Shown here: piece after piece, positions 537 through 43,000 of the stretch
Layout of the letters: every line of letters begins with the position of its first letter
Numbering within the stretch: the stretch's first letter is position 1
Assembly: GCA_964590105.1 (NCBI GenBank)
Contig: CAZPYM010000002.1
Coordinates: 26,697 to 90,696, forward strand
Source of the DNA: an uncultured Gammaproteobacteria bacterium
GTDB lineage: Bacteria > Patescibacteriota > Patescibacteriia > UBA11705 > JABHMO01
Direction: 5' to 3'
Length of the DNA: 64,000 nt
Position numbers and translations under genes: made by a program
The notes under the pieces: generated by a model
The model's input: only the letters and a program-made list of their open reading frames with translations
Database searches by the model: none
Told to the model about the DNA's origin: nothing

Positions 537-648
537 ATAATTCCATTATACACTATTTTAAAATAATTGTCAATATACGATTGACAATAGTATATTTTAA
601 CTAAACTTATTTGTTTTAATTTTGAATAAAAAGAGCAAATAATTACCA

Positions 649-2238: not shown

Positions 2239-2268
2239 AAAAAAGCCCGGTGAATCGTCACCGAGCTT
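2239..2268 (-). terminator. rho-independent terminator for the minus-strand operon ending at 2280
   Basis: Read on the minus strand: agctcggtga-cgat-tcaccgggct followed by tttttt. Confidence 0.55.
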
Positions 2269-2279
2269 CTTTGTTTGAA

Positions 2280-2876
2280 TCAGAGACCAATCTTCAAGCC
2301 GATCAATGTTCGAGCAAAGTCAAATTCAGTCTCTTCGGAATTAAGTGGCACCCAGGCCACCCAGGCAGTCATTTCCCAAAAGTTAAATTCCACCACCGGC
2401 CCGACTCCGGCCGGCCGGCGGTCTTTCACGCCGAGCGTCAGCCATTCCAGAGTTTTTACCCGCAATGTCAGATCGTACCAGACTTGCGAATCATCGCCAT
2501 CATAGGCAAGCCGTCCAACTTCCACCTGCCCGGTGAAGTTCACGCGTCCATTTTTCAGCCCGAGCAGATACGCTGTTTGAAGATCCATTCCCTCCGGCCC
2601 CTGCCGGCCACCGAGCGAAACTCCCAGTTGCAACCAATCAACCGGCTGCCAGATCGGGCCAAAATGCGCCTGCGCCCAGCCACTGTTCATGAGCGTGAAA
2701 AACCGCAGACTGAAATTCTCATTCAGCTTTACGGCCGCGCCCGCGTCAATGATCAGCTTGTCATGAACTTCCGGCGTCATGGTTTGCGTTTCGAAGAAAG
2801 CGCTGATTTGCGCCTGGGCCATTACCGGCAACAGCAAACACACAATAGAACCCAACACTGCCAAATACTTTGTCAT
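2280..2876 (-). CDS. secreted protein with signal peptide, unknown function; GC-rich gene
   Basis: N-terminus MTKYLAVLGSIVCLLLPVMAQAQ is a classic signal peptide. The rest has alternating hydrophobic pattern suggestive of beta structure. Local GC is clearly above the window background. Confidence 0.6.
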   Translation of the reverse strand: MTKYLAVLGSIVCLLLPVMAQAQISAFFETQTMTPEVHDKLIIDAGAAVKLNENFSLRFFTLMNSGWAQAHFGPIWQPVDWLQLGVSLGGRQGPEGMDLQTAYLLGLKNGRVNFTGQVEVGRLAYDGDDSQVWYDLTLRVKTLEWLTLGVKDRRPAGVGPVVEFNFWEMTAWVAWVPLNSEETEFDFARTLIGLKIGL

Positions 2877-2995
2877 TCTCCCCTCCTTAACGCGTTATTG
2901 CGCTTTTCCATTTTCACCATCACCCACCAAATCAAAAAAACAAATATTGCCGACATCACAAGAATCACAATCAATTCGGCTCCCGCCGTGAACAT
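2873..2995 (-). CDS. small membrane peptide (40 aa), translationally coupled
   Basis: ggaggtgtttcATG start. Translation is MFTAGAELIVILVMSAIFVFLIWWVMVKMEKRNNALRRGE, and its stop overlaps the ATG of the 2280..2876 gene (ATGA). Not in the ORF track because it is under 60 aa. Confidence 0.4.
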   Translation of the reverse strand: MFTAGAELIVILVMSAIFVFLIWWVMVKMEKRNNALRRGE

Positions 2996-3007
2996 GAAAC
3001 ACCTCCA

Positions 3008-3301
3008 CTATTCTCGTTTCCGAATCAACCGAACCGCGATGGCAATCAGCGCTCCGACAAACAAAATTGCCAGAAATCCAATTGCGCTAAACCCGCTCAT
3101 TCGATACATTGAATAAAGACAAGCGGCCAAAGGCGCAATCGCGCAAAGGTGCAATGCAAACAGAAGCCAACGCATCTCAAACTTAATGCGCGGTTGTATC
3201 TTGTCCTCGTATTTCTGGACAAGATATATCGTCCACCAAATAATCGAATAAATTGCAAACCAGAAAAACACCATGCCCCAAAGACCAATGAGTTGCGCCA
3301 T
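3008..3301 (-). CDS. membrane protein (97 aa)
   Basis: Three hydrophobic helices. First gene of the minus-strand trio 3301 to 2280. Confidence 0.5.
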   Translation of the reverse strand: MAQLIGLWGMVFFWFAIYSIIWWTIYLVQKYEDKIQPRIKFEMRWLLFALHLCAIAPLAACLYSMYRMSGFSAIGFLAILFVGALIAIAVRLIRKRE

Positions 3302-3507
3302 AATTTTCCTCCTCGTGAATCTCGAGCCCTGAGCTTACTTCTCGACCATGAGCTCGAAGCTGAATGGTCGAAGGGTCTAAAGGTATTGTTATTGTCAAAG
3401 TTCTATTTAATTCTGGATTATATCATACAAAAAATGACGTGTCAAGTATTTTAATCTAAATTTAGTCAAAATTAGTCACAAAACATTAGACAGCGCGAAT
3501 ATTCTCT

Positions 3508-3536
3508 TGACGTGTTTGTTTAATTTTGCCATAATA
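3508..3536 (+). promoter_or_regulatory. sigma70-like promoter followed by a ~120-nt leader
   Basis: ttgacg-16/17 nt-cataat. The leader carries hairpin acgggggaataccccgt at about 3620 before the ATG at 3659. Confidence 0.4.
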
Positions 3537-3658
3537 CGAGTGTCATAAAATAAATGATAATTACCCAAACCCCGCATGTAATTTCTCGAATCCTCGTCGC
3601 TCGAAATGACAATACGGGGGAATACCCCGTTTATTCCGCCACCTACGCAAAATAAAAT

Positions 3659-6427
3659 ATGCTGGAACAAAACCTCAAACAACTCGACTTCACCCCCAAC
3701 GAAATAAAAGTATATTTGGCTCTTTTCGCGATCGGCAAATCCAGAGCCGGAAAAATAATTGCTTCAACCGGCCTGCATAGAAATCTTGTTTACACTTCTT
3801 TGGAAACATTGGAAAAAAGAAATCTGATAACAAAAGTCTTAGTCAAGGGCGTAGCCGAATTTTCCGCCAATTCACCAACCTCCTTAATTGATGAAATTGA
3901 AAACAAAAAACAGCTCGCCCGTCAGGCGGCCGATGAATTGGAAAAACTCGCCAAACACGAGGAGCGCGACATAAAAATTTACGAAGGCCTCGACGGTATC
4001 AAGCAAGCCCGGTCAAATATTTTGAACTTGCCAAAAGGCAGTGAATTTTTTGTTTTAGGCGCCAGCAAGCTGAGCCAAACTCCGAAACTAGAAAATTTCT
4101 GGCGCGCCTTTCATAAAAAAAGGGAAGCAAAAGGAATAAAACAAAAAACGCTTTATGAAAGCACCACGGATCAAGGGGTTTTGGACAGCATCAAATGGCG
4201 CAATCAACTGCCAAATATGAAAACCAGGTTTTTGCCGTTTGAAATTGATTCCCCCCTTTGGTTTGACTTTGCCGAAGACCACGTCAATCTCGGCCTTGCC
4301 GGCAAAGACCCTCTGACAATCAACATCAAAAGCCGCGATCTGGCCAACGGCTTCAAAAAGTATTTTGAATATTTCTGGGATCAGCGCGTCCGGGTCAAAA
4401 CCGGCGTGGCCGCGGTCAAAGAAGCAATTTACGAACAGCTTAATTCTTTGGCGCCCGGCCAGGAATATCTTATTCTCGGCGCCAAGGGAGCGGATTATCC
4501 CGAGGGCATAGACGAGCTATATGACGAATTCCATACTGACCGCATTAAAAAAGGCGTTGTTACAAAAATGATTTGTTATGAAGAATCTTATGAAGGCCTG
4601 AAAAAACGATTTGAAAAATGCGGCGACATCGAAGGCAAAATTAGTTTTTTGAAAAAATATGCTTCCGGAACCCCGATCCCGATGCAGATCAACATGTACA
4701 AAAATAAAACCTTTTTTATTTTGTACGAAAAAACACCGGTTGTGATTTATTTTGACAACCCGATTATTTTCCAGACCTTTAATAATTATTTTAATGATAT
4801 CTGGAATCAAAAAGTTCATACTCACACCGGATTCAAGGCTCTGCATGACGCATTTTATAATATGATAAACGAACTTGGACCAGGGGAAGAATATTATGTT
4901 CTTGGCACAATGGGTCACGGCCTAGACAAAAAAATTGAAGATTTTTTTGATAAATATCACAACGACCGAATAAAGAAAAAAATTAATTTAAAAATGCTTT
5001 GCTACGAAGAATCATTTACGCCAATTTCTAAACGTTTTCAAAGAGAAGATCCGGAAAATAAATTTACCCAGCTGAAAATTTACCACGAATCTCCGCCCGC
5101 GCCAATGCAAATTGTGCTTTATAAACAAAAAGCTTTTATTACAATTTACGATGGCCACGACACAACCGTAATCCATTTTGACGAACCAAACGCGTACGCC
5201 GGATTTAAAAATCATTTTGACAAAGCCTGGGATCAGCGCGCCAAAACATATGAAGGAGTCGAACAAATAAAAAGACTTTTCATGGAAACCATGGAATTCG
5301 GCAATTATTCTGTTTTTGCCGAAGGCATGAAAATAATTGACGTGCTGGGCGAAGGGTTTTTTACCAGATGGCAAAAAGAAAAACAAAAACGCGGCACTAA
5401 ATCCCGCGGCATTATGAACGCCAGATTCAAAAGCCAGCCGACCGTCACCAAATCGATTACTCAAATGAAATTTATTCCCGGTTACACTGCGCCGGGCGTA
5501 ACTCTGATATTCAAAGACAAAGTGGCCAGCATTAATTTTTCAAAAAATCCGACCGCTTTTTTAATCGAAGACGCTGAAATTGCCCGAAGCAACCAATCCT
5601 ACTTTGATTTATTGTGGAATCAAAAAATTATAACCAGCGAAGGACAAAAAGAAGTTGAGCAACTCTACAACAATCTATTAGAAACAGCCAATTCGCAAGA
5701 TAAAGTTATGGTCTTTGCGGCCAAGCCATCTTCAGAGTCTTCGGCAAATTTCAATCTTGAATGGAATAAAAAAATCAGTAAAAAAACAAAAGGAGTCCGC
5801 CTGCTTTATTACGGCAATACCGGCCGGAACAGAGAGCGAGCTCAGGAATTGACCAAGGTCGGCTGTCAAGCTAAAACCTTGCCAACTGAACAAGAATTGC
5901 CCATCTCAACAATTATCATTGGCGATAAAATTTTAAGCACCGTCTGGAACAAAAAACCAATCGCTTTTTATATGAAGGATGAAACAACGGCCGCGGCTTA
6001 TAAAGAGAATTTTGAATTACTCTGGAATCAGGAAACTTTCGTATTAAAGGGCCTGGACGCGATTGAATATCTTTTTGAAGAAATGCTAGCCGCCGGACAC
6101 GCAGATCTGATCGGCGCCCGCGGATATTTCATTGACCGCCGGCCAGAATTCATTGACGACTGGGAAAAACGAGCCCGGCGCGCTGGCTTTACCATGCGCA
6201 ACATTGTGGATCCCGGACTACGCGGACATCGCATTACAAAATTTCCTTTTGCCAAGACAAAATATACGCTTAACAAAGAATTTTCCAACTTGAGCGTGTT
6301 CTGGATTTTTGGAGACAAATTGGCCATCAGCAACTGGACGGAGAAAGAGCCCTTTGCCATAATCATTGACAACAAACATGTGCACGATATGTATAAGCAA
6401 CAATTTGAATTGTTGTGGAGAAATTAG
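3659..6427 (+). CDS. giant TrmB-like regulator: N-terminal HTH plus about seven tandem TrmB C-terminal-domain-like repeats (922 aa)
   Basis: N-terminus MLEQNLKQLDFTPNEIKVYLALFAIGKSRAGKIIASTGLHRNLVYTSLETLEKRNLI is TrmB HTH-like. A ~115-130 aa module then recurs, each ending in an F/Y-x2-3-W-N/D-Q motif: YFEYFWDQRV, YFNDIWNQKV, HFDKAWDQRA, YFDLLWNQKI, NFNLEWNKKI, NFELLWNQET, QFELLWRN. The single-domain TrmB paralogs here end with the same kind of motif (WWKFMF, FNLAWRGCGK). Confidence 0.8.
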   Translation: MLEQNLKQLDFTPNEIKVYLALFAIGKSRAGKIIASTGLHRNLVYTSLETLEKRNLITKVLVKGVAEFSANSPTSLIDEIENKKQLARQAADELEKLAKHEERDIKIYEGLDGIKQARSNILNLPKGSEFFVLGASKLSQTPKLENFWRAFHKKREAKGIKQKTLYESTTDQGVLDSIKWRNQLPNMKTRFLPFEIDSPLWFDFAEDHVNLGLAGKDPLTINIKSRDLANGFKKYFEYFWDQRVRVKTGVAAVKEAIYEQLNSLAPGQEYLILGAKGADYPEGIDELYDEFHTDRIKKGVVTKMICYEESYEGLKKRFEKCGDIEGKISFLKKYASGTPIPMQINMYKNKTFFILYEKTPVVIYFDNPIIFQTFNNYFNDIWNQKVHTHTGFKALHDAFYNMINELGPGEEYYVLGTMGHGLDKKIEDFFDKYHNDRIKKKINLKMLCYEESFTPISKRFQREDPENKFTQLKIYHESPPAPMQIVLYKQKAFITIYDGHDTTVIHFDEPNAYAGFKNHFDKAWDQRAKTYEGVEQIKRLFMETMEFGNYSVFAEGMKIIDVLGEGFFTRWQKEKQKRGTKSRGIMNARFKSQPTVTKSITQMKFIPGYTAPGVTLIFKDKVASINFSKNPTAFLIEDAEIARSNQSYFDLLWNQKIITSEGQKEVEQLYNNLLETANSQDKVMVFAAKPSSESSANFNLEWNKKISKKTKGVRLLYYGNTGRNRERAQELTKVGCQAKTLPTEQELPISTIIIGDKILSTVWNKKPIAFYMKDETTAAAYKENFELLWNQETFVLKGLDAIEYLFEEMLAAGHADLIGARGYFIDRRPEFIDDWEKRARRAGFTMRNIVDPGLRGHRITKFPFAKTKYTLNKEFSNLSVFWIFGDKLAISNWTEKEPFAIIIDNKHVHDMYKQQFELLWRN

Positions 6428-6461: not shown

Positions 6462-6707
6462 ATGAACCTATGTATAAAATATAATGTACCAAAAAGTATG
6501 ACTATCATTGGACTAAAAGATCTACGCCAAAACGTAGACAAATATTCCAAAAAAATTCAGAATGGCGAATCCTTTATTGTAATGAAACGCTCATTGCCCC
6601 TTTTTAAAATCTCACCTGTTAACGACGGGCCATGGGAAGAGCTGATTGATTTCACAAAAATAAAAAAAGGCGGTGTTGATATTAAAGAGTTGTTAAAACG
6701 TCTTTAA
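6462..6707 (+). CDS. Phd/YefM-family antitoxin (likely start at ATG 6492)
   Basis: MTIIGLKDLRQNVDKYSKKIQNGESFIVMKRSLPLFKISPV matches the Phd/YefM N-terminal pattern. It sits immediately upstream of a RelE/ParE-like ORF. Confidence 0.6.
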   Translation: MNLCIKYNVPKSMTIIGLKDLRQNVDKYSKKIQNGESFIVMKRSLPLFKISPVNDGPWEELIDFTKIKKGGVDIKELLKRL

Positions 6708-6710
6708 TGT

Positions 6711-6950
6711 ATGGTTGATAAAATCACCAAAGCAGTACAAAAATTATTAGACAAAGACAAGAAAAAAATAAAAGCCCTTTTACAAAACATTCAAAATGGA
6801 GAGTTATTGAATTTAGATATTAAAAAGCTTAAAGGGAGAAATGACGTTTACCGAGTTAGAAAAGGAAACATTCGAATACTTTTTCATAAAACAGAACAGT
6901 CTATAAAAATTTTAGCTGTTGAAAATAGAACAGACACTACCTACAACTAA
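6711..6950 (+). CDS. RelE/ParE-family toxin
   Basis: The C-terminal half NDVYRVRKGNIRILFHKTEQSIKILAVENRTDT is the canonical RelE/ParE YR(I/V)R...R(I/V)(I/L)... core. The gap to the antitoxin gene is 3 nt. Confidence 0.65.
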   Translation: MVDKITKAVQKLLDKDKKKIKALLQNIQNGELLNLDIKKLKGRNDVYRVRKGNIRILFHKTEQSIKILAVENRTDTTYN

Positions 6951-8999: not shown

Positions 9000-9028
9000 T
9001 TGACAACCACTGTTTGATATAGTATTAT
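9000..9028 (+). promoter_or_regulatory. sigma70-like promoter for TrmB paralog
   Basis: ttgaca-accactgtttgatatag(17)-tattat. The near-palindrome aacagcgg/ccactgtt overlaps the -35. Confidence 0.45.
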
Positions 9029-9100: not shown

Positions 9101-9847
9101 ATGCTAATAAAAACTCTTCAGGAAATCGGACTTTCTCCAAACGAAGCCAAAATATATGAAGCTCTTTTGGAGCTGAAACAAGCCGGCGTCGGCACGATTT
9201 CCAGCCATTCGAAAATACACCGAAGAAATGTTTACGACACAATCTCCCGCCTGGTTGACAAGGGTCTGATCTTCCCGGTCATCGGCAAAGGAGAGAATAA
9301 ATATTCACCGGTTGACCCGGGAAAACTTCTGGAATTAGTCAAAGAAAAGGAAACAAGTCTACTCTCCATCCTGCCACTCATGAAACAAAAATATGAGGAG
9401 CGCAAAACTCCGCAGGAAGCTTATATTTATCGCGGCGTTGAAGGATTCAAAAATTACATGCGCGATATTTTGAAAGAAGGGCAGGATGTTTATTTTATCG
9501 GCGCCAAGCTGGGCTGGCTGGACCCGAGGATCAAAACATTTTTGAACAATTTTTTAACCCTGGCCAAGAAAAAGAAAATCAAATTCCACCACATCTTTGA
9601 CACGGAAGTAAAAGAAAAAACTCCTGCCAATGAATTAGCTGAGCTCGGCCCGAATCATCGCTTCATGCCCAAAGAATTTTCCACGGTTTCCGCCGCTGAT
9701 ATTTTCGGCGACTATGTTGTCACCTTTACCGGATTAAATTATAAAAAGATTGATGACGACGTGACTTTATTTGTCCTGCGCGACAAGGATCTGGCTGACA
9801 GTTACCGCACCTGGTGGAAATTTATGTTTAATAATTGTAATAAATAA
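9101..9847 (+). CDS. TrmB-family transcriptional regulator
   Basis: MLIKTLQEIGLSPNEAKIYEALLELKQAGVGTISSHSKIHRRNVYDTISRLVDKGLI. 248 aa, typical size, C-terminal YRTWWKFMF motif. Confidence 0.8.
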   Translation: MLIKTLQEIGLSPNEAKIYEALLELKQAGVGTISSHSKIHRRNVYDTISRLVDKGLIFPVIGKGENKYSPVDPGKLLELVKEKETSLLSILPLMKQKYEERKTPQEAYIYRGVEGFKNYMRDILKEGQDVYFIGAKLGWLDPRIKTFLNNFLTLAKKKKIKFHHIFDTEVKEKTPANELAELGPNHRFMPKEFSTVSAADIFGDYVVTFTGLNYKKIDDDVTLFVLRDKDLADSYRTWWKFMFNNCNK

Positions 9848-9852
9848 TTTTA

Positions 9853-11576
9853 TGCTAAAAAAAATCATCTTCGTTTCAATCTGCCTGATTTTTCTTTTTC
9901 CCAATCTGACTTCAGCCCGAGAAAATGTTTACGATTGGTATATCCAGAATTTTTATACCAAAATTACGGTTAATCAGGATTCTTCTTTAATTATTGAAGA
10001 GCAAATCACGGCCGACTGCGGTAATGGCAATGACAAACACGGCATTTTTCGGGTCTTGCCGACGCAAACCAAAACTCCGGACGGCACGATCAAAACTCCC
10101 ATTGAGTTAATTAAAATTACCGACTTTCAAGGCCAACCATATAATTACCAAACCATTCGCGGGAATAATACCCTAACCTGGAAGATCGGCAATCCGGACA
10201 CATCCGTAAAAGGCGTTAACACCTATTTAATTGTTTACAAAGTAAAAAATACTGTCCAATTTAATAATTCCGAATTTGATGAATTTTACTGGAACCTGCT
10301 TGGCAACTTCTGGGATCTAGAAATTGACAACTTTACGGCCGACATTATTTTTCAATCAGCCATCAATCAAGACAATACCAAAATTGATTACTACGCCGGC
10401 AACCTGGGCTCAAAAGACAAAACAACCGCCGGCTATTCCTGGCTCAATAAAAACACACTGCGCTTCGAGTCCAATTCAATATTCTACAAAAGCCAAGGTC
10501 TAACTACCTCTGTCACTTTTCCAAAAAATATTCTTCAGCCGACCCGACTTAGTTTATGGGAGAAGTTAAATACATATTTTTTCTTTTGGCCGTTCATTAT
10601 CCCCGTCATTATATTTATACTTTGCTTTTTGGTCTGGATCCGCTTTGGCAAAGATCCAAAACACGGCAAAACCATTATTGCGCTTTATGAACCGCCAAAA
10701 GGTTTAACTCCGGCAGAAATCGGCTCAATCCATCAGGAAGGAACATTTAACGAAAGGCTGATAACCGCGACGATTATTAACCTGGCAGTCAACGGTTATA
10801 TTACCCTTGAACAAATCTCTGAAAAAAAGAAATTCAGCATAACCAAAACCAAGAACGATTTCAAAATAACGAGATTAAACAAAGAGCCGCAAGCTTTATC
10901 GTCTTTGGAAAAATTAATTCTGGACAATCTTTTGGATCAACAACCGGAAATAACTTTATCAGCCATACAAAAAACATTTCCCAAAAAGATTAAGGGGATT
11001 TCAAAACAAATCCAAACTGCGCTGATTGAAAAGGGTTATTTTGCCAAAAAGGGTTTCACCCTTAAGCCGATTTTTATAGGCATAGGCGTTGTAATCGGAT
11101 TTATTTCATTTGCCCACATAGAAAATAATTGGCTCTGGGGGCTGGCCGGGGTTTTATCCGCGCTTTCCATATTAATCTTCGGACTGCTCATGGCCCAAAA
11201 AACTCCGAAAGGAGCGGAAGTTCAATGGGAGATTAAAGGATTTAAACATTACATGGATGTAGCGGAAAAGCATAGGCAGGAATTTTATGAAAAAGAAAAT
11301 ATCTTTGAAAAGTTTTTACCGTTTGCCATTGCCTTTGGTATGACAAAACAATGGATTAACAAAATGAAACAGATTTACGGCGAAGACTTTTTCGCCAACT
11401 ACGCGCCCGCCTGGTACATTGGCTCGACAATGGGCGGCTTTGACGCTGACTCTCTGAACAGCAGCCTGACCAGCATTTCCAATGCTGTTTCGCAAAGCAT
11501 GGGCACATCGTCCGGCTCGGGCGGCAGTGGATTTTCCGGCGGCGGCGGCGGCGGTGGTGGAGGCGGCGGCTGGTAA
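9853..11576 (+). CDS. DUF2207-like membrane protein with C-terminal poly-Gly tail
   Basis: Signal peptide MLKKIIFVSICLIFLFPNLTSA, a large extracytoplasmic domain, TM helices in the middle, and a C-terminus SGSGGSGFSGGGGGGGGGGGW. This architecture is characteristic of DUF2207. The track ORF starts earlier at 9771 by TTG read-through. Confidence 0.65.
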
Positions 11577-14172: not shown

Positions 14173-14373
14173 AAAATTATTTCTTTTAGTGTATTGTTCC
14201 GAGCGAGGAGAAACAACGCGTCGAAAAATGTCGGTAATTTCCGACTACATTTACATTATATCATACTATTATATCCCGTCAAGGTAACCGCGGTTTTTAT
14301 TTAATATTAGCCAATCATATTACTTAAAATTCACCACTCACCGACCACTACCCACCAAAAAGGTCGGTAATAA

Positions 14374-14458: not shown

Positions 14459-15397
14459 ATGAACTACGTTCAGCTGATTGAGAAAATGAAATCTGGCCTT
14501 GGGAAGTTATACAAGATGGCTCTAGATCTGGCCGCCATTCTGGACAGTGCGGCGGCGCAAGTAACAGAAGATGCAAGCCGCGGCTGGGAAGGACCGCGAG
14601 AGCAGAGACTTCGAACCTTCAACCTCCTGTGCGCTATCTGCGTCAAAGCCAACATTGCTCCTCCGAACTTGGAGGAAGGACTCTGGAGGGGAGCGCTTCC
14701 GCGAACTTACAACAAGGACCGCTTCGAACAGGCAAGGAAAGTCGCGCGAGAAACACGCCTCCGGGTACGCAAGCATCTGAAAGGACAAACCCGTCCCGCC
14801 GCGAACATGGCCCGCGCGCTCATGGAAACCATCAACCTTTTTCCGGATTGCGATGGCTTCACCGGCATCAACAAGGAAAACATCATGGCCATGCTCAACC
14901 GCCTTCTGGTGGACGAGCTCAGTCTCGCGCCCTTTCGGCCGGACTACAGCGCCATGACAATCCCCGACGTTCTGCATGCCGACGGTTCCGCCCGCCCTGC
15001 CACGGTCGTAATAGTTGACGACGATCCAAACGAACTGCTCAAGTCCGCGCTGACGCTGATCGGGATTCCAAATCTTGCGGTAAAATTCGTTCACTACAAA
15101 AGCGCTTCTGCCTGGAACAAACCACAAGGCCAGGAACTTCAGAACAAGCTCCTGGAAGTTGCCCGGTCTGTGCTGGAATTAACGCCGGACGTCATCGTGA
15201 TGGATCAGGGGCTCGGCGACATTGAAGGATCTGATCTTGTCACGACCATCAAGAACCAAAACCCGGAACACCGGCCAATCTTTGTCGCCAACACCGGCGG
15301 CGATCCGAACAAACTGCTCAATGCCGGCTGTCTCGATAACTTCGAGAAGGGTCGCGCTCCGAAAAGCATTCGACAGGCGATCAGCGCCGTCAATTAA
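14459..15397 (+). CDS. hypothetical protein with C-terminal receiver (REC/CheY-like) domain
   Basis: The C-terminus TVVIVDDDPNELL...PDVIVMDQGLGDIEGSDLV...PIFVANTGG...NFEKG has the DD, D, T and K positions of a receiver fold. The N-terminal ~170 aa are unassigned. GC is much higher than the window average. Confidence 0.6.
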   Translation: MNYVQLIEKMKSGLGKLYKMALDLAAILDSAAAQVTEDASRGWEGPREQRLRTFNLLCAICVKANIAPPNLEEGLWRGALPRTYNKDRFEQARKVARETRLRVRKHLKGQTRPAANMARALMETINLFPDCDGFTGINKENIMAMLNRLLVDELSLAPFRPDYSAMTIPDVLHADGSARPATVVIVDDDPNELLKSALTLIGIPNLAVKFVHYKSASAWNKPQGQELQNKLLEVARSVLELTPDVIVMDQGLGDIEGSDLVTTIKNQNPEHRPIFVANTGGDPNKLLNAGCLDNFEKGRAPKSIRQAISAVN

Positions 15398-15524
15398 AAA
15401 TCCAAAAAATATCTCGAGGGAAGTCACCATGTGGCTTCCCTCTTCAACCGCCGATTTCTTGGAAAAAGGAATCTGCAGTTGGAGATTTGTTCATTAAATT
15501 AAAAACAACCAAGAGGAGTCTGTC

Positions 15525-16193
15525 ATGACAACAGAAACTGATCATAAAAAAGCTCTTGAATTTTTCAAAAAGTCAAACCCAACTCTATATAACGATACGG
15601 AACAAATGCGGATCAAAATGCTTGAGCTCGAGGCCTGCACAAAAAACGAAACCAACCTCCCGGCCAAAAGCATCTATGTGCAAGGCCGAAACCTGCTGGC
15701 TTGCGCGCTCGGAGTTGAACTTCTCCCAGAAATTGAAATTCCGGAAGAAAAGGAAATGACCATGGATGAAATCAATGCCATTAGAATCGTGCCAAACCAA
15801 AAAATCACCGTTGTCATAGTTGACGACCGGCCAAATGAAGTTCAAGTCATGATATCCGTGCTCGAGTCCTGGCCCAATGTCCGAGTCTGGCCGATTATTG
15901 GCGAAATCACTCAGTGTTCTCCCAGAAAAACAGCAGGCTTGCTCACTGAACGCGAAAACCGGGTCTCGACTATCTGTCTTTTGGACGAAGCCATTGGCCA
16001 AATCAAGGGTTCTGATGTCGCCAAATTTCTGAATGAACTTGGTTTCGTCGGCATCCTGGCTTCAATCACCTCCGGTGAAAAGCCTGCTTTTACTGATTTC
16101 CACTTTGGCGACAAGAACAAAATGGCCGGCAACTATTTCATCAAGAAATTTGTTGAATTCATAAACCAACTGATCAGGGAGGAAAGACAATGA
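15525..16193 (+). CDS. hypothetical protein with C-terminal receiver-like domain (paralog of the previous C-terminus)
   Basis: KITVVIVDDRPNEVQVMISVLESWPN...ICLLDEAIGQIKGSDV...ILASITSGEKP...FGDKNK. Confidence 0.55.
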   Translation: MTTETDHKKALEFFKKSNPTLYNDTEQMRIKMLELEACTKNETNLPAKSIYVQGRNLLACALGVELLPEIEIPEEKEMTMDEINAIRIVPNQKITVVIVDDRPNEVQVMISVLESWPNVRVWPIIGEITQCSPRKTAGLLTERENRVSTICLLDEAIGQIKGSDVAKFLNELGFVGILASITSGEKPAFTDFHFGDKNKMAGNYFIKKFVEFINQLIREERQ

Positions 16194-22837: not shown

Positions 22838-22866
22838 TTGACAAACTGTTAATATGTGTTTACAAT
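22838..22866 (+). promoter_or_regulatory. sigma70-like promoter for TrmB paralog
   Basis: ttgaca-17-tacaat, flanked by ttgtcaa (22801) and ttgacaa (22838) inverted half-sites. Confidence 0.45.
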
Positions 22867-22917: not shown

Positions 22918-23697
22918 ATGAACCTTCGACATATGGCCCAAACAATAACAATATTAAAACAATTTGGATTAACGGAGACTGAAATAAAGATTTATTTAGC
23001 CGGATTGAAATATACTGCGCTTTCGGTCAGCGACCTAGTTAAACAAACGGGGATCAAACGCACAACCATCTATCATGCTTTGGAAACCTTGATTCAAAAA
23101 GGTCTATGTTCGAAAAAACAAATTATTGGCAAACAGGCATTCAACATGACTGCGCCAAAAAATATAGAAAACCTTTTAACTGAAAAAATTGATGAATTGA
23201 ACAAGCAAAAAACTGCTTTACATGAAATAATCCCCTTGCTCGAAGCCAGTCAAACCGCCGGGACAAAAATGGTTGTTTCGCATTATGAAGGCATTGAAGG
23301 AATCAAACTGGTAGTCGAAGATGCTCTTTATTGCAAATCCAGACATTGGGATATTTTGGCGCCGGTGAAAAACTTTTTTTCTGAATTTGATAAAAGTTAT
23401 GCTGACTATTTTGTAACAACCAGACAACAAAGAAGCTTGACCGCCCGCTCACTGTGGGAAGTTGCTGTGTCCCCACAAAACTTAACGCCAGCGGTCTTAA
23501 AAGAACGCAATCCAAGGATTTTACCAAAAGTTATGCACGGAAAATTTAAGTCAGTAATTTGTTTATATGATGATAAAGTCTTGGTTATTTCTTCTCTTAA
23601 AGAATTGTATGCAGTCCTAATTCAATCACAAGAATTTCATGAAACCATGAGCTCAATTTACGAGGGGCTATGGCAAAGTTCAAGGCCGGTTAAATAA
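22918..23697 (+). CDS. TrmB-family transcriptional regulator
   Basis: ILKQFGLTETEIKIYLAGLKYTALSVSDLVKQTGIKRTTIYHALETLIQKGL. Confidence 0.8.
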   Translation: MNLRHMAQTITILKQFGLTETEIKIYLAGLKYTALSVSDLVKQTGIKRTTIYHALETLIQKGLCSKKQIIGKQAFNMTAPKNIENLLTEKIDELNKQKTALHEIIPLLEASQTAGTKMVVSHYEGIEGIKLVVEDALYCKSRHWDILAPVKNFFSEFDKSYADYFVTTRQQRSLTARSLWEVAVSPQNLTPAVLKERNPRILPKVMHGKFKSVICLYDDKVLVISSLKELYAVLIQSQEFHETMSSIYEGLWQSSRPVK

Positions 23698-23934: not shown

Positions 23935-26900
23935 TTATTTTGCCAACTTACCCGCCTCTTGCAGATCCAGTGACAAAGTTTTGGAAACCCCATCCTCGCC
24001 CATAGCCACGCCATAAAGCACATCAGCCACGTGCATTACCACTCGATTGTGCGTAATAATGACGAACTGCGACCGGTAAGACAATTCCTGCAAGATAACC
24101 GCAAACTTATCAGAGTTTGCTTCATCAAGAGCGGCGTCAACCTCGTCCATGACAATAAAAGGGGAAGGATTGCTCTCAATAATTGCGCAAATAAGAGCTA
24201 GGCTCGTCATTGTTCTTTCGCCACCGGACAATGACGCAATATTATTAATTTTCTTATTTGGCGGCGCGACCATTATTTCAATACCGGTATTAACAGGGCG
24301 CGCCTTTTCCGCCGACAAAGATTCCTCACCCTCGGACACTTCCGCTCCATTGTTTTCTTCCGGCAAAACCTCCTCTTGTTCTTTTGTTTCCTTTTTCTCT
24401 TTTTGTACAATTTCTAATTTCGCCTTGCCTCCCTGAAATATTTTTTCAAAATACTTGGCAAAGGCCTGATTTATTTTTTTGAATGAAGAATTAAATTGCC
24501 GACTGATCACTTCATCTAGCTCGTCAACTATTTTTTCCAGATCCTTGATTGCTTTTTCCAGATCGAGCGCCTGTCCGCTCAGAAATTCATAGCGCTCGGA
24601 AACATCCCGGTGTTCATCAACAATTTCCGCGTCAATGCCGCCTATTTGATCAAGCTCATGTTTTAATTTACTGATTTCAAACCAAAGCTGATCAATGTTG
24701 ACTGCCTGCGCCAGCTGAATTTTTTCCAGCTCTTCCCCGGCGCCCAGCTCGCCGACAATTTCTTTGTCTAAATCTTCTTTTTTCGCATCCAGTCTGGCCA
24801 GCTGAATATTTACATCACTAAGTTCATTGTTTACTTCATTTAATTTTCCCTGATGCTCCTGCATTTCTCTTTGCAAGCGAAAAACTTCAGTTTTTTTCTT
24901 TTCTTCTTCCAAATTAAACTGGTCCAGTTTTGTTCTCATCTGCTGGGCTTTGTTTTCCAGCTCATCCAACTGACGCTCCAACTCCACTTTTTTGCTGGAT
25001 AAATTTTTCAAATACCGATCCTGATCAGCCGGAGCAACTTGATTTTCTTCAATTTCCGCGACAATTTTATTTTTTTCTTTACCCAGAGTTTCTAAATCAT
25101 TACTGAGTGCTTTTTGTTTTGTTTCGCTGACCTGGATTTCCACGCGCAAATCATTAATTTCGTTTGTAAAATTCTGCCGTTGGCGCGACAAATCTTCAAT
25201 CTTTGATTTTAATATTGCTATTTCTTTTAATTTTTCCTCCTGACTGCTCAAACTTTTTTCTCCTCCATCCACCAGCCACGACAAGCTGCCGCGCCGCGTA
25301 TAGCCGCCGCGCATAGCGCCGCTCTTTTCAAAAACATCGCCATCAAGTGTCGACATTCTCTCCAGCCCCACGCCCAAGTCCCTAGCATTTTGTACATTAT
25401 CTACAATTATTGTACCGCCAAAAACAAAATTATAAATTTTTCTGAACTTCTGATCAAAATTAATCAGATCAACCGCAAAACCAATGGCTCCAGTATGTTC
25501 CAATAATTTTTTTGATTCCGCCCTCGGAGCAAAACCTTGAATTTTATTCAAAGGCAAAAACGTGGCTGTTCCCAGCTTGTGCTCTTTTAAATAATTGATA
25601 CATTTAACAGCCACTTGATCGTTTTGCACGACTATTGCCGACAATCTATTACCGGCCGCGGCCGAGAGCGCGGTTTCATACATTTGATCAAGCGTGGCCA
25701 GCCCACTAACTGTACCATGGATGCCCTGAATTGAATCTTTTTGCCGCAAGATCGCTTTGACCGATTCATAACCCGCATTGGCCCTACCGCCGCTTTTTAT
25801 CTGAGCCAGATCACCTTCAGCCGCCTGCAAATTATTATTTAAAACTGTGAGCTGATCAGCCAGATCAAAAATCATTTTTTCCGCTTCTTCCTGATTTTGT
25901 TTTTTGAGCAATAATTTGTTACCCACGTTATTTAGACTCTCTTTTATTTCGCCGGCTCGACGCTCCAGCTCTTCTTTTTTATTTTCCAACCAAGATAAAT
26001 TTTGCTTTCCCACCTTCACATACTCCAGGCTCATTTTCCCCTTGAGCACGGCCATGTCTTTCAATAAATCATTTTTTTCAGTGGTAATTCGGTTATATTC
26101 TTTTTGTAAATTATTAAAAACATCTTTCCTGGACTCCTGTCTGGCTGATTCGGCCAATAGACGTGAAACATTGTCCAGTCGAAGCTGTAAATCCTGCTTT
26201 AATCCGTCTTTAATATTAAATTTTTCTTCATACTGATCTCTATCAGATTTCATTTTTTGCAAAATGTGCGCATAGTAAGTCTTTTGCAACTCGCGCAGGC
26301 CATTTTCCACTTCTTTTCTTTTTTCCAGTTTTTTTATTTGCCGAGTCAGGGAGCGGAGACGCGGCTCGAGCTCAGCCAAGATCTTATTTGTTTGTTCCAG
26401 ATTGTCTCGCGAGCGGCTGAGACGATTGACCGACTGATCACGTTTGATCTGATATTGTTTTACGCCGGTGGCTTCGTCAAAAAATTCTTTGCGTTCAAAA
26501 GGCGAGATATTAATAATGTGATCAACCATTCCCTGGCCGATAATGCCGTAGCTTCTCTGGCCGAAATTCGCCCGCGCCAAAAGAATCAAAATATCATAAA
26601 GACGCACTTTGCTTTTGTTAATCAAATATTCATTTTCACCGTTCCGGTAAACCCGACGGGTGATGGCTACTTCGCTATAATCAATGGGCAATTCTTTGTC
26701 TTCATTATTCATGTACAAAATCACTTCGGCAAAACCCTGCCTGGCTTTTTTTTCACTGCCGCCGAAAATCACCTCTTCTGCTTTTTTGCAACGAATCAAT
26801 TTCAAACTCTGTTCGCCCAAAACCCAGCGGATGGCGTCGGCAACATTTGACTTGCCAGAACCGTTCGGCCCGACAATGCCGGTAATGCTTTTTGCCTTTG

Positions 26901-26988
26901 TGTCATGATTTGACTTTTCCGGAAACTCAAAAACTGTCCTTCTGGCGAAAGATTTGAATCCTTGAATTTCCAGTCTCTGTAAATACAT
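23935..26988 (-). CDS. smc: chromosome segregation protein SMC
   Basis: N-terminal Walker A GPNGSGKSNVADAIRWVLGEQS, long coiled coils, a hinge, and C-terminal LSGGERTMTSLALICAI...VMDEVDAALD signature and Walker B. Confidence 0.9.
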   Translation of the reverse strand: MYLQRLEIQGFKSFARRTVFEFPEKSNHDTKAKSITGIVGPNGSGKSNVADAIRWVLGEQSLKLIRCKKAEEVIFGGSEKKARQGFAEVILYMNNEDKELPIDYSEVAITRRVYRNGENEYLINKSKVRLYDILILLARANFGQRSYGIIGQGMVDHIINISPFERKEFFDEATGVKQYQIKRDQSVNRLSRSRDNLEQTNKILAELEPRLRSLTRQIKKLEKRKEVENGLRELQKTYYAHILQKMKSDRDQYEEKFNIKDGLKQDLQLRLDNVSRLLAESARQESRKDVFNNLQKEYNRITTEKNDLLKDMAVLKGKMSLEYVKVGKQNLSWLENKKEELERRAGEIKESLNNVGNKLLLKKQNQEEAEKMIFDLADQLTVLNNNLQAAEGDLAQIKSGGRANAGYESVKAILRQKDSIQGIHGTVSGLATLDQMYETALSAAAGNRLSAIVVQNDQVAVKCINYLKEHKLGTATFLPLNKIQGFAPRAESKKLLEHTGAIGFAVDLINFDQKFRKIYNFVFGGTIIVDNVQNARDLGVGLERMSTLDGDVFEKSGAMRGGYTRRGSLSWLVDGGEKSLSSQEEKLKEIAILKSKIEDLSRQRQNFTNEINDLRVEIQVSETKQKALSNDLETLGKEKNKIVAEIEENQVAPADQDRYLKNLSSKKVELERQLDELENKAQQMRTKLDQFNLEEEKKKTEVFRLQREMQEHQGKLNEVNNELSDVNIQLARLDAKKEDLDKEIVGELGAGEELEKIQLAQAVNIDQLWFEISKLKHELDQIGGIDAEIVDEHRDVSERYEFLSGQALDLEKAIKDLEKIVDELDEVISRQFNSSFKKINQAFAKYFEKIFQGGKAKLEIVQKEKKETKEQEEVLPEENNGAEVSEGEESLSAEKARPVNTGIEIMVAPPNKKINNIASLSGGERTMTSLALICAIIESNPSPFIVMDEVDAALDEANSDKFAVILQELSYRSQFVIITHNRVVMHVADVLYGVAMGEDGVSKTLSLDLQEAGKLAK

Positions 26989-41324: not shown

Positions 41325-41340
41325 GTTGCCCATTGAAAAC

Positions 41341-41500
41341 TTGTCCCAAAGGTATCCTCTTGTGATAGTTTGTAATTTCCGCTTTATTGTTTGTCCCGAA
41401 GGGCTCCTCTTGTGCTAATTTGTAATTTCCGCTTTATTGTTTGTAATTTGTTATTGGTCCGCCATAGGCGGATGCGCCTTGGGCGCACAATTTGTAATTT
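41341..41500 (+). repeat. tandem ~52-nt duplication followed by copy 2 of the twin-hairpin repeat
   Basis: ttgtcccaaaggtatcctcttgtgatagtttgtaatttccgctttattgtttg, then tcccgaagggctcctcttgtgctaatttgtaatttccgctttattgtttg, then taatttgttattggtccgccataggcggatgcgccttgggcgcacaatttgtaattt. Confidence 0.8.
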
Positions 41501-41613: not shown

Positions 41614-42015
41614 CTAATTACCCGTTGTGGCGTCAAGCAATGAAGTGATCACAAAGTTAGTAATAGCGTAAGCCGCCAAAATTATAGCGAGGCCAATCAC
41701 CGCGTTGGTCAGCCACTGCTTAGCCTTGGTGACATCCTCAGGATTGCCTCCTGCCGTCATCCACAGGAATCCGGCGTATATTACGATAACAATCACAACC
41801 ACGCCAAGAAAAGTTAAAACAACTTTTATTATATTTCCGACCATCTCAGGCAATGGCGTCGGATCTTCCGTGTCATATGCGGTTCCACCTACACTATTTA
41901 AGTTATTCGTTAACTCCGTTTTGAAATCAGTTGCTGCCACCGGCTGGGCCGTCAGTGATATCATAAAACTACTGACAAGCACGAGCATTAAACAAAGCGC
42001 AATAATATTTTTCAT
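41614..42015 (-). CDS. T4SS-pilin-like (TrbC/VirB2-like) small secreted protein, paralog 1
   Basis: Signal peptide, a variable mature N-terminus, then the conserved core VIVIVIYAGFLWMTAGGNPEDVTKAKQWLTNAVIGLAIILAAYAITNFV. Confidence 0.7.
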   Translation of the reverse strand: MKNIIALCLMLVLVSSFMISLTAQPVAATDFKTELTNNLNSVGGTAYDTEDPTPLPEMVGNIIKVVLTFLGVVVIVIVIYAGFLWMTAGGNPEDVTKAKQWLTNAVIGLAIILAAYAITNFVITSLLDATTGN

Positions 42016-42035
42016 AAATTTTTCCGAATTACTTG

Positions 42036-42491
42036 TTATATAAATATTGAATTAATGAGCGCGCTAACGCCGGTAGCAACAGTTAATTTGTCCACTACAA
42101 AATAAGTAATCGCATAGGCGGCAAGAGCAATACCCAGCCCGATCACAGCCTGCGACAGCATGTCTTTTGCTTTGGTGACTCTTTCAGGATTACCACCAGC
42201 CGTCATCCACATTATACCGCTATAAATAACTAAAACAAGTAAAATAATTCCAAGTAAAACTAAAATCACTTTGATCGCCGCGCCAACTATAGTGGGTAAA
42301 TCCTTGTTCGGAACACCGCCGGCCGCTGACGCTCCCATGCCTTCGCCGGCTTTGCCAAGAGTGGAGGTGATTGAATCTGTACTGGCAGGAGCAGGCGGCG
42401 CAGCCTGTACGACAGCAATCCCGCAAAATATAAATACCATTGAGGCCAAAACTCCGATGCTAATCAATTTTTTAAAATTTGTTACAGTCAT
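42036..42491 (-). CDS. T4SS-pilin-like protein, paralog 2
   Basis: Core LVLVIYSGIMWMTAGGNPERVTKAKDMLSQAVIGLGIALAAYAITYFV. Confidence 0.7.
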   Translation of the reverse strand: MTVTNFKKLISIGVLASMVFIFCGIAVVQAAPPAPASTDSITSTLGKAGEGMGASAAGGVPNKDLPTIVGAAIKVILVLLGIILLVLVIYSGIMWMTAGGNPERVTKAKDMLSQAVIGLGIALAAYAITYFVVDKLTVATGVSALINSIFI

Positions 42492-42535
42492 ATTATTTTT
42501 AATTTATTAATTTCCAGCAAAATTCATTCCCCTTT

Positions 42536-42592
42536 ATAATTTGTTATTTGTCCGCCATAGGCGGATGCGCTTTGGGCGCATAATTTGTAATT
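42536..42592 (+). repeat. twin-hairpin repeat, copy 3 (partial), between pilin paralogs 2 and 3
   Basis: ataatttgttatttgtccgccataggcggatgcgctttgggcgcataatttgtaatttcc. Confidence 0.8.
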
Positions 42593-42595
42593 TCC

Positions 42596-43000
42596 TTATT
42601 CCACCCCGACCGCGCTGGTCATTGCCTTAACCACGTAATATGTAATCGCATATGCCGCCATGGTCACCGTCAAGCCGATCGCGCCATCTATGATCATGCC
42701 CCTGCCTTTGGTCACTCCCTCAGGAGCGCCCGCGGCCGTCATCCAAGTTACGCCACCGTAAACAACGATTATCAAAAATATGATCCCGGCCACGCTGACC
42801 AAAACCCCGATCGCTTTACCAATCACGCCCGCCGGATCAACTTTGTCGGTTTTTAATCCCGCCGGCCCAGCTGAGGTTTCAAGCCCTTTGAGCGCCTTGG
42901 CAGTTGCTTTTTCATTGGCCATGACCCCGTCCGCAACTAATACAAAATTAATCGTAAAAAACGAGATGAATAACAAACAAATTAATAATTTTTTAAACAT
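42596..43000 (-). CDS. T4SS-pilin-like protein, paralog 3
   Basis: Core IIVVYGGVTWMTAAGAPEGVTKGRGMIIDGAIGLTVTMAAYAITYYV. Confidence 0.7.
   Translation of the reverse strand: MFKKLLICLLFISFFTINFVLVADGVMANEKATAKALKGLETSAGPAGLKTDKVDPAGVIGKAIGVLVSVAGIIFLIIVVYGGVTWMTAAGAPEGVTKGRGMIIDGAIGLTVTMAAYAITYYVVKAMTSAVGVE

Follow-up and report, generated by a model that had tools for sequence, protein, structure and literature searches.

A TrmB-family protein with six tandem phospholipase D-like units encoded by a bacterium of the candidate phyla radiation

Introduction

Transcription factors of the TrmB family have been described with two architectures, a helix-turn-helix (HTH) domain alone or an HTH followed by one C-terminal (ligand-sensing) domain (PMC9426492, PMC4158304), and they are rare in bacteria, where they account for about 0.5% of transcription factors (PMC9426492). 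Here we describe a member of this family from an ultra-small bacterium of the candidate phyla radiation (CPR), which carries behind its single HTH a run of six tandem units resembling the phospholipase D (PLD) fold. The gene lies in a stretch of 64,000 nt of contig CAZPYM010000002.1 (GCA_964590105.1), referred to as the window, and its 922-aa product is called the giant protein.

In TrmB itself the effector-binding domain (EBD) has two subdomains, of which the first is an eight-stranded sheet flanked by helices, the last of these being the ‘sugar recognition helix’, and the second is a seven-stranded β-barrel; six of the seven sugar contacts come from the barrel, including those of Gly320 and Glu326 (PMC4158304). 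The Pfam family PF11495 (Regulator_TrmB) models the C-terminal domain of both TrmB and TrmBL2 and matches TrmBL2 (PMC3031468), and both proteins dimerise through an amphipathic coiled-coil helix after the HTH (PMC4158304, PMC4877046). TrmB-family operators are palindromes that overlap the start site where the protein represses; for TrmBL1/Tgr, which is reported to be autoregulated, the operator (TGM) is TATCAC-N5-GTGATA (PMC4158304). No description of a multi-unit TrmB architecture was found in the literature on TrmB with Patescibacteria, CPR or PLD-like domains or, for DPANN archaea, in the titles and abstracts of the papers.

Results

The giant gene encodes one HTH and six tandem units

The giant gene is a real and intact open reading frame (ORF), its 922 codons being open throughout (Table 1). 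Seven contigs, taken from independent assemblies of Logan, ENA and JGI, encode the same protein residue for residue, and no DNA-level tandem repeat was found within the gene, so the six-unit architecture is no assembly artefact. PF01978 was the sole Pfam match (aa 6–61, E 5.2e-9, 36.3 bits against a gathering cut-off of 25.6), aa 100–922 being without any, and the NCBIfam model tran_reg_TrmB matched partially (21.8 bits, cut-off 600); an initial annotation of the window, made from the sequence alone, had rightly described a 922-aa TrmB-like protein with one HTH.

In the HTH head, Tyr45 is invariant across the 89-sequence alignment A2 and pairs with the VYD motif (Tyr50-Asp51) of TrmB chain 3qph; a recognition-helix Tyr is conserved in the TrmB family (Tyr50 of TrmB, Tyr49 of TrmBL1; PMC4158304). 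A profile of the head, the following helix and one unit (A3) matched TrmB 3qph (E 6e-12) and, end to end, TrmBL2 (E 2e-9, profile 7–240 against residues 11–259 of 262). A long helix is predicted at aa 74–97, where TrmB and TrmBL2 have their coiled-coil dimerisation helix, and it aligns with the TrmBL2 helix in the A3 profile; by analogy with the family, the giant protein would dimerise through it. The whole protein is basic (pI 9.0, net charge +16), units R1 and R4 having a pI of 9.5–9.7.

The copies behind the head were counted with a home-made unit hidden Markov model (HMM), because PF11495 gives no match, and this model found exactly six full-length copies (E 4e-31 to 5e-40 each) where the initial annotation had estimated about seven. 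When cut after each aromatic motif, the region falls into six contiguous units of 129–142 aa (R1–R6) that align over their whole length. The aromatic motif said to end each copy was indeed present in six out of six, in the form F-x-x-x-W-[NDR]-[QN] (aa 236, 378, 520, 649, 785 and 916). Compared pair by pair with BLASTP, the units gave E values between 1e-40 (R2 with R3, 41% identity) and about 1e-4, apart from two weaker pairs, so that by BLASTP and by the unit HMM the internal repeats are far beyond chance; the units of the giant protein share only 15–41% identity, and R2 and R3 appear from their sequences to be the youngest duplication of the array. Enumeration with Pfam models recovered the PF01978 head but PF11495 nowhere in the giant protein. 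The structure first proposed, one TrmB-type HTH followed by a polymer of the C-terminal domain of short paralogs in the same window, thus stands with its copy number corrected from about seven to six.

The full-length AlphaFold2 (AF2) model (pLDDT 83.8, pTM 0.49) shows the HTH (aa 1–70), then a helix, a hinge and six copies of one β-α fold joined by three-residue linkers. Its confidence is high and continuous over R1-R2-R3 and over R5-R6 and low around R4 and the R3/R4 and R4/R5 junctions, R4 being the lowest-confidence part.

Table 1. Positions of the giant gene, its parts, its promoter region and related genes in the window.
Feature	Position	Strand	Remarks
Complete ORF, TrmB-family protein with six tandem PLD-like units	3659..6427	+	922 aa + stop
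TrmB winged HTH (PF01978)	3659..3868	+	PF01978; AF2 pLDDT 89–96
Long post-HTH helix, aa 74–97	3878..3949	+	AF2 secondary structure; low-confidence hinge aa 96–101
Unit R1, aa 103–243	3965..4387	+	Subtype D (‘first-position’ type); ends FEYFWDQ
Unit R2, aa 244–385	4388..4813	+	Subtype B; ends FNDIWNQ; modelled singly
Unit R3, aa 386–527	4814..5239	+	Subtype B; 41% identity to R2; ends FDKAWDQ
Unit R4, aa 528–656	5240..5626	+	Subtype N; ends FDLLWNQ
Unit R5, aa 657–792	5627..6034	+	Subtype K; ends FELLWNQ; missing from P0001
Unit R6, aa 793–922	6035..6424	+	Subtype A (‘last-position’ type); ends FELLWRN, then stop
Sigma-70-like promoter of the giant gene, TTGACG-17-CATAAT	3507..3535	+	TG before -10; 10/12 matches
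Operator-like 19-bp palindrome O1, TGTCAT-AAAATAA-ATGATA	3541..3559	.	Starts 5 nt after the -10 hexamer
Possible second site O2 (TATCATACAAAAAATGACG), tentative	3421..3439	.	1 mismatch; 120 bp upstream of O1
Divergent gene, 97-aa membrane-like protein	3008..3301	-	Candidate co-regulated target
Divergent gene, 198-aa protein with signal peptide	2280..2876	-	Candidate co-regulated target
Single-unit paralog, cut by the window edge	536..<1	-	178 aa seen; promoter 573..545, 12/12 matches
Single-unit paralog, 248 aa (HTH + helix + one unit)	9101..9847	+	Promoter 9000..9028; palindrome GTGGT-CAAT-ACCAC downstream of -10
Single-unit paralog, 242 aa	13444..14172	-	Promoter 14282..14255; palindrome GTCGG-AAATTA-CCGAC
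Single-unit paralog, 259 aa, convergent with SMC	22918..23697	+	Promoter 22838..22866; palindrome AGACAG-GCT-CTGTCT

The unit resembles the C-terminal domain of TrmBL2

The model of R2 alone, built from a 47-sequence unit alignment (pLDDT 95.9, pTM 0.89), is an α/β domain with the order β-α-β-α-β-α-β4-α. The eight top Foldseek matches of this model in the PDB were all TrmBL2 chains, in the C-terminal domain (E 2e-6 to 2e-5; probability 1.00 and query TM-score 0.60–0.67 for 5bqt, 5box, 5bpd and 5bpi), and the next were FAM83/BJ-TSA-9 (DUF1669), phospholipases D1 and D2 (PLD1/2), Zucchini, PPK, vaccinia F13 and phosphatidylserine synthase (PSS). Across the R2 and full-length models, Foldseek E values for PLD1/2, Zucchini, Nuc, NucT, PPK, F13 and PSS were 1e-4 to 1e-2; the full-length model matched TrmBL2 and TrmB over about 240–270 columns and also matched Nuc and NucT. 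In these models the repeated unit has the PLD fold.

TrmBL2 ends in FNEYWEK, which contains the same F-x-x-x-W motif, and the aromatic motif is therefore the C-terminal helix signature of the family itself. From model and sequence, the unit corresponds to the first EBD subdomain of TrmB, that is, to the entire C-terminal domain of TrmBL2. The original reading of the units as copies of the TrmB C-terminal domain is upheld in so far as fold and profile tie them to TrmB and TrmBL2, but it applies to the first subdomain only, and PF11495 is unmatched. A sugar-binding β-barrel was not found in the giant protein, nor was any barrel-like all-β segment in its full-length model; the barrel subdomain is absent, as the six α/β units tile aa 103–922 fully. 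Without the barrel that makes the sugar contacts, the idea of a ‘sensor-domain polymer’ that integrates multiple ligands found no support from homology.

The catalytic HKD motif (H-x-K-x4-D) is present in none of the six units, the His position being variable. The position of the HKD lysine (column 105 of alignment A1, an equivalence drawn from the order of secondary-structure elements) is occupied by Lys or Arg in 98% of units (K 70%, R 28%), including all six here; the unit also conserves a Gly following strand 1, a Pro, a D/N-K pair and, in the last helix, the Phe and the Trp. PADLOC defence models recognised nothing beyond the HTH, and a tblastn search against phage and plasmid collections gave no match, so that an origin from a defence system or a mobile element was rejected.

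The giant protein is one rung of a 2-to-7-unit ladder

A homolog survey over 5.8 billion proteins, with units counted by the unit HMM, gave 90 relatives (proteins are cited below by P and loci by L numbers), all with PF01978 and no further domain. Their lengths are quantised (about 515, 650, 790 and 1080 aa), with three units in 53, four in 26, five in nine and seven in two of them, the giant protein standing alone with six. A HMMER search with the unit profile of 1.84 billion cluster representatives returned 9,550 proteins at E <=1e-3, 4,064 at 1e-10 and 298 at 1e-30, and the best 150 of the 9,550 have two to seven units, the maximum being seven. In 200 of 230 pooled proteins the first unit starts at aa 95–135, directly behind the HTH head. 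These unit-profile lists are ranked by total score, which favours many-unit proteins, so their frequencies are not unbiased; multi-unit forms probably make up a few percent of the family. Six units are also carried by P0092 (926 aa), which is only 25% identical to the giant protein, and high copy number therefore arose or persisted in separate lineages. The architecture is unusual, as had been thought, but not unique: it is the six-unit rung of a ladder of two to seven units seen in hundreds of metagenomic proteins.

By source names and genome records, the hosts of the relatives are Falkow-, Kuenen-, Magasanik- and other Parcubacteria/Patescibacteria, together with metagenome-assembled genomes labelled Woesearchaeota or Nanoarchaeota, and databases name the proteins ‘hypothetical’ or ‘sugar-specific transcriptional regulator TrmB’. 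The genome scan behind the loci compared was queried with the single giant protein, alignment A2 being too diverse. In the archaeal-labelled loci L012, L013 and L016 and in the locus of the seven-unit protein P0026 (L017), TATA-box-like elements lie about 25–30 nt before the ATG and sigma-70 promoters are lacking, and L017 also has a RadA-type (Rad51/HHH_5) neighbour, which supports a real archaeal origin; the archaeal labels are nevertheless not fully secure, because L013 carries a triosephosphate isomerase of bacterial size.

The closest relatives of any one unit of the giant protein are particular units of other proteins, in many cases at a different position. Clustering of the units gave about 15 subtypes with a preferred place in the chain (first, D, C, J, M and O; last, A, I and L; middle, B, E, G, K, N, H and F), and in these terms the giant protein is D-B-B-N-K-A. 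The commonest architecture in its clade is D-B-A (36 proteins), and D-B-K-A, D-B-B-A, D-B-N-A and D-B-B-K-A were found too. The closest relative, P0001 of Falkowbacteria (787 aa, 60% identity), is D-B-B-N-A, so the giant protein has one extra K-type unit (R5). By its unit subtypes the array is a mosaic rather than a simple polymer. Mean pairwise identity among 50 proteins of the D-B..A clade is 44% in the first unit, 50% in the second, 53% in the last and 51% in the HTH; the units are thus conserved like the HTH, which indicates purifying selection and not decaying duplicates. Odd unit counts are frequent in the family, which we take as an argument against obligatory intramolecular pairing of units.

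A conserved palindrome covers the promoter of the giant gene

The unit HMM and the HTH HMM each find five genes in the window, all in the first 24 kb and none elsewhere, and just upstream of each lies a sigma-70-like site with 10–12 of 12 positions matched. Both the five TrmB paralogs in 64 kb and a near-consensus promoter of its own for each (at least 10 of 12 positions) had been noted at first and hold. Each of the four short paralogs, which match the unit HMM at E 1e-24 to 1e-31, has its own, different palindrome just after its -10.

The promoter layout of the giant gene recurs in L005, L008–L011, L015, L018 and L019. Its palindrome, O1, covers the expected transcription start and is the one exact match to TRTCAT-N7-ATGAYA in the window; allowing up to one mismatch brings the count to 5, where 0.57 would be expected, and 0 of 100 shuffles reached this number. 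One-mismatch matches at 35702, 41959 and 51019 lie inside coding regions and were dismissed. The sequence T(G/A)TCAT-N7-ATGA(C/T)A is found 5 nt after the -10 in L005/L006 (P0001, Falkowbacteria), L008/L009, L010 and L015 (all Magasanikbacteria) and L011, and a TGTCAC variant takes the same position in L018 (P0010, three units) and L019 (P0002, four units), which makes eight independent loci with the 5-nt offset, the window and seven further bacterial ones. The T(G/A)TCAT form occurs once per 13–18-kb locus, against about 0.01 exact matches expected per locus by a rough base-composition estimate. This conserved palindrome over the gene's own promoter, which the initial annotation had overlooked, is the strongest functional clue.

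The possible second site, O2, falls in the spacer of the divergent promoter (- strand, 3445..3417), and its spacing from O1 is exactly 120 bp in the window, L005, L018 and L019, where the intergenic layout is fixed. Its left half is the reverse complement of the extended -10 of the divergent promoter (TGnTATAAT) and its right half is kept only in the window and L005, not in L018 or L019. O2 is considered tentative, because the extended -10 accounts for its left half and those two loci do not keep its right half.

The half-site T(G/A)TCA(T/C) comes close in sequence to TATCAC, that of TGM. In the archaeal-type loci the TATA-like box is closely preceded by a GC-rich palindrome, CCCC-N4-GGGG or CCTCCC-N4-GGGAGG, which may be the operator of the archaeal branch. 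Taken together, the conservation of O1, the palindromes of the paralogs and of the archaeal-type loci and the likeness to TGM argue for sequence-specific autoregulated factors rather than non-specific chromatin proteins. The GC-rich palindromes of L012 (~5890–5910), L013 (~4750–4770) and L017 (~2940–2960), loci of 3-, 4- and 7-unit proteins, read CCCCTATAGGGG, CCCCTAGTGGGG and CCTCCCCGAAGGGAGG and lie about 12–20 nt upstream of the TATA-box-like TTTATATA / TTTATAAATA.

The leader of the giant gene (~117 nt, 3536–3658) is unusually long, those of relatives being 20–50 nt. It contains a GC-rich hairpin, ACGGGG-GAAUA-CCCCGU (3614–3630), followed by UUUAUU, and a CCCCG at 3570–3574 could pair with the same CGGGG, an attenuator-like layout; the fold z-score of the 5′ leader is modest (-2.2), and an Rfam search of it found no family. 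A direct repeat, TTAG(T/A)CA, stands three times shortly before the -35 (3462, 3472 and 3486), adjoined by an AT-rich palindrome (3447–3474). These repeats were not found at the paralog promoters; similar ‘TTTAGTCA/TTAAGTCAC’ strings occur upstream in L018 and L019.

Neighbouring genes

Relatives of the ~199-aa protein encoded divergently from the giant gene (33–57% identity) are likewise divergent from the multi-unit gene in L005 (6983–7582), L018 (2212–2811) and L019 (2153–2770), and a small membrane protein precedes the ~199-aa gene in the window and L005. Searches of Pfam, NCBIfam and the PDB found no match for the ~199-aa protein, which contains many conserved Trp, Gly and Arg (FFETQTM..., KDRRPAGVGP). 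A 288-aa GTG ORF at 2250–3116 (+) overlaps the conserved gene at 2280..2876 (-), is of odd composition and is almost certainly spurious. In L008, L010 and L011 the position of the ~199-aa gene is taken by an unrelated β-rich signal-peptide protein of ~170–197 aa with an aromatic end (..SYTF), which recalls an outer-membrane β-barrel signature and would be odd for CPR bacteria; the ~199-aa protein showed no profile similarity to this upstream protein.

No broadly conserved operon partner of multi-unit genes was found among the loci compared. The multi-unit gene is convergent with SMC in L018 and L019; in the window it is the 259-aa paralog that adjoins SMC (23935..26988, -), and the giant gene lies 17 kb from that slot. 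In L005, L012 and L018, ZIP zinc-transporter genes lie no more than a few kb from the multi-unit gene. Directly downstream of the giant gene, at 6462–6950, are two small genes (81 and 79 aa) that also stand beside the Kuenenbacteria relative (L007; 91% and 75% identity). The 79-aa protein contains ‘...YRVRKGNIRILF...’ and resembles RelE/ParE-type toxins, and by sequence the two form a probable toxin-antitoxin pair.

Among the short paralogs, the 248-aa one is directly followed by a gene for a DUF2207 membrane protein (9852–11576, +) with a C-terminal Ser/Gly run (…GSGGSGFSGGGGGGGGGGGW), a pair that recurs on Logan contig L001. Divergent from the 242-aa paralog are two successive genes (14459–16193, +; 312 and 222 aa) with weak similarity to response-regulator receivers and no recognisable output domain. 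Farther away, at 41614–43000 (-), stand three paralogous genes in tandem, whose small products (133, 151 and 134 aa) have a signal peptide or transmembrane segment and a conserved ...WMTAGGNPE..VTKAK...AYAIT motif; these look like TrbC/VirB2-type pilins, and direct repeats of ‘TTGTAATTTCCGCTTTATTGTTTGT’ lie just upstream (41340–41500).

Discussion

Among described proteins, TrmBL2 (TK0471 of Thermococcales; 5BOX, 5BPD, 5BPI and 5BQT) is most like the giant protein, sharing the winged HTH, the barrel-less α/β C-terminal domain and the F-x-x-x-W end, with a predicted helix at the place of its amphipathic one. It differs in being archaeal and tetrameric, with one C-terminal domain (264 aa) and a largely non-specific coating of DNA (PMC4877046, PMC3031468), whereas the giant protein has six domains, is bacterial (sigma-70 promoter), stands behind a conserved specific palindrome and is unmatched by PF11495. 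TrmB and TrmBL1/Tgr (3QPH, 2F5T) share with it the PF01978 HTH, the recognition-helix Tyr and the fold of the first EBD subdomain, and their operators are likewise palindromic and, where they repress, over the start site, with the TGM half-site TATCAC resembling T(G/A)TCA(T/C) (PMC4158304); unlike it, they have a single first subdomain plus the sugar barrel (G320, E326), and their operator spacer is N5, not N7. The single-unit CPR paralogs have the same head, helix and unit, a strong promoter of their own and a palindrome just after the -10, but one unit instead of six and different palindromes. Members of the PLD superfamily (Nuc, Zucchini, PLD1/2, the C-domains of PPK, F13 and, in FAM83, DUF1669) share the unit fold and a basic residue at the HKD lysine, but in the enzymes HKD is present and one or two domains pack as a (pseudo)dimer, in contrast to six consecutive domains here. 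The giant protein is thus neither a sugar sensor of the TrmB/TrmBL1 type (no barrel, PF11495 unmatched) nor a PLD enzyme (no HKD).

It is very probably a TrmBL2-type factor of the TrmB family in which the PLD-like domain has been multiplied into six units, and we regard it, with less assurance, as probably a dimeric sequence-specific autorepressor. The protein would dimerise through the post-HTH helix, and the two HTH heads would bind T(G/A)TCA(T/C)-N7-ATGA(C/T)A over the transcription start, occluding RNA polymerase at the giant's own promoter and so repressing its own gene; the divergent operon of the ~199-aa secreted protein may be repressed too. Repression at a start-site palindrome is proposed by analogy with TrmBL1/Tgr at TGM sites. 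The six-unit tail, with its 3-residue linkers, would be a largely rigid extension that modulates repression, and we suggest tentatively that it acts through higher-order self-association or the binding of a partner; a scaffold was also the alternative named in the initial annotation. Such a rigid extension is favoured because TrmBL2, with the homologous single domain, forms tetramers and polymers on DNA and because the unit types at the two ends of the array look structural. Action of the tail through ligands in single units or in the clefts between them appears doubtful.

Several observations weigh against this interpretation. We infer DNA binding, dimerisation and repression by the giant protein alike, the operator could belong to another factor, and TrmBL2, the closest structural relative, is a chromatin protein whose DNA binding is non-specific (PMC3031468, PMC4877046), unlike the mode proposed here. 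PF11495 gave no match in the whole giant protein to E 10 or in single units and paralogs to E 1, so the homology of the unit rests on fold, on a weak unit-only profile and on a stronger profile of HTH plus unit: searched against PDB sequences, the unit-only profile matched TrmBL2 end to end but marginally (E 3.2), and the addition of the HTH head made the match firm (E 2e-9). The geometry between units is uncertain (pTM 0.49), with low confidence at aa 96–101, 477–532, 550–611 and 657–659. Neighbouring units align with two-domain PLD enzymes over ~350 columns at a root-mean-square deviation of ~17 A; the model therefore does not pack them like a PLD pseudo-dimer, and a PLD-like pairing of adjacent units, which had been considered, is unsupported at such a fit.

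A multi-input sensor, the main idea of the initial annotation, in which units or inter-unit clefts bind different small molecules and so release the HTH dimer from its operator, is possible, if rather doubtful. It would accord with some 15 subtypes that are individually conserved across lineages and recombined in varied number and order, with units constrained as strongly as the HTH, with the basic residue at the HKD-lysine position in 98% of units and all six here, and with the ‘sugar recognition helix’ of TrmB, which lines the ligand cleft (PMC4158304) and corresponds to the F-x-x-x-W helix. The same TrmB, however, draws six of its seven sugar contacts from the β-barrel that is absent here (PMC4158304), TrmBL2, which has the same single domain without barrel, has no known ligand, and the way in which first and last unit types keep so strongly to their positions looks structural and not sensory.

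We think it unlikely that the giant protein is a nucleoid-associated or architectural protein which coats DNA as TrmBL2 does, its linked units replacing or extending the contacts between subunits. TrmBL2 is the best match by fold and by profile for the unit and for the HTH-plus-unit module, it forms tetramers and stiff filaments on DNA (PMC4877046, PMC3031468), and the giant protein is as basic as described above (pI 9.0, net charge +16), all of which would suit such a role. A specific palindrome at a fixed promoter position in eight loci points instead to sequence-specific binding, and the four single-unit paralogs, each with a different palindrome, look like specific regulators; TrmBL2-like coating is less likely because of this specific operator.

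That an HTH tethers several catalytic domains of a PLD-superfamily nuclease, phosphodiesterase or phospholipase is very improbable: the unit has the PLD fold, with Nuc, NucT, Zucchini and PLD1/2 among its Foldseek matches, but H-x-K-x4-D is in no unit, only Lys/Arg being kept, the nearest relatives, TrmBL2 and FAM83, are non-catalytic, and no PADLOC defence model was matched. Tandem repeats mis-assemble easily and the four paralogs in the window could in principle fuse, yet a mis-assembled repeat, a fusion of paralogs by a lost stop or a pseudogene is hardly credible for a gene with no DNA-level repeat, units of 15–41% identity, the same protein on seven contigs, a single HTH head, units that abut without gaps and are all matched by the full HMM and folded in the model, and a 2-to-7-unit ladder in many lineages.

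The giant protein, then, is an elaboration of a known family and not a new principle, but it is real, unusual and testable. Given the rarity of the family in bacteria, a CPR bacterium with five TrmB members in 24 kb, one of them with a six-fold C-terminal domain, stands out, and the ladder of two to seven units across CPR bacteria and DPANN-labelled archaea is so far undescribed in the literature searched. To our knowledge, six to seven consecutive PLD-fold domains per chain would form the longest such array. More speculatively, tandem PLD-like arrays might constitute a distinct ‘poly-domain’ class of one-component regulators peculiar to ultra-small symbiotic lineages, the CPR bacteria and DPANN archaea. 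If so, such proteins would swap unit subtypes between a fixed first and a fixed last unit, the array would be a combinatorial multi-signal sensor or the single-chain equivalent of a TrmBL2 oligomer, and one protein would do the work of several in genomes poor in transcription factors. For these reduced, mostly uncultured lineages, the predicted operator, the predicted autoregulatory loop and the conserved divergent target gene offer a concrete and cheap entry point to gene regulation.

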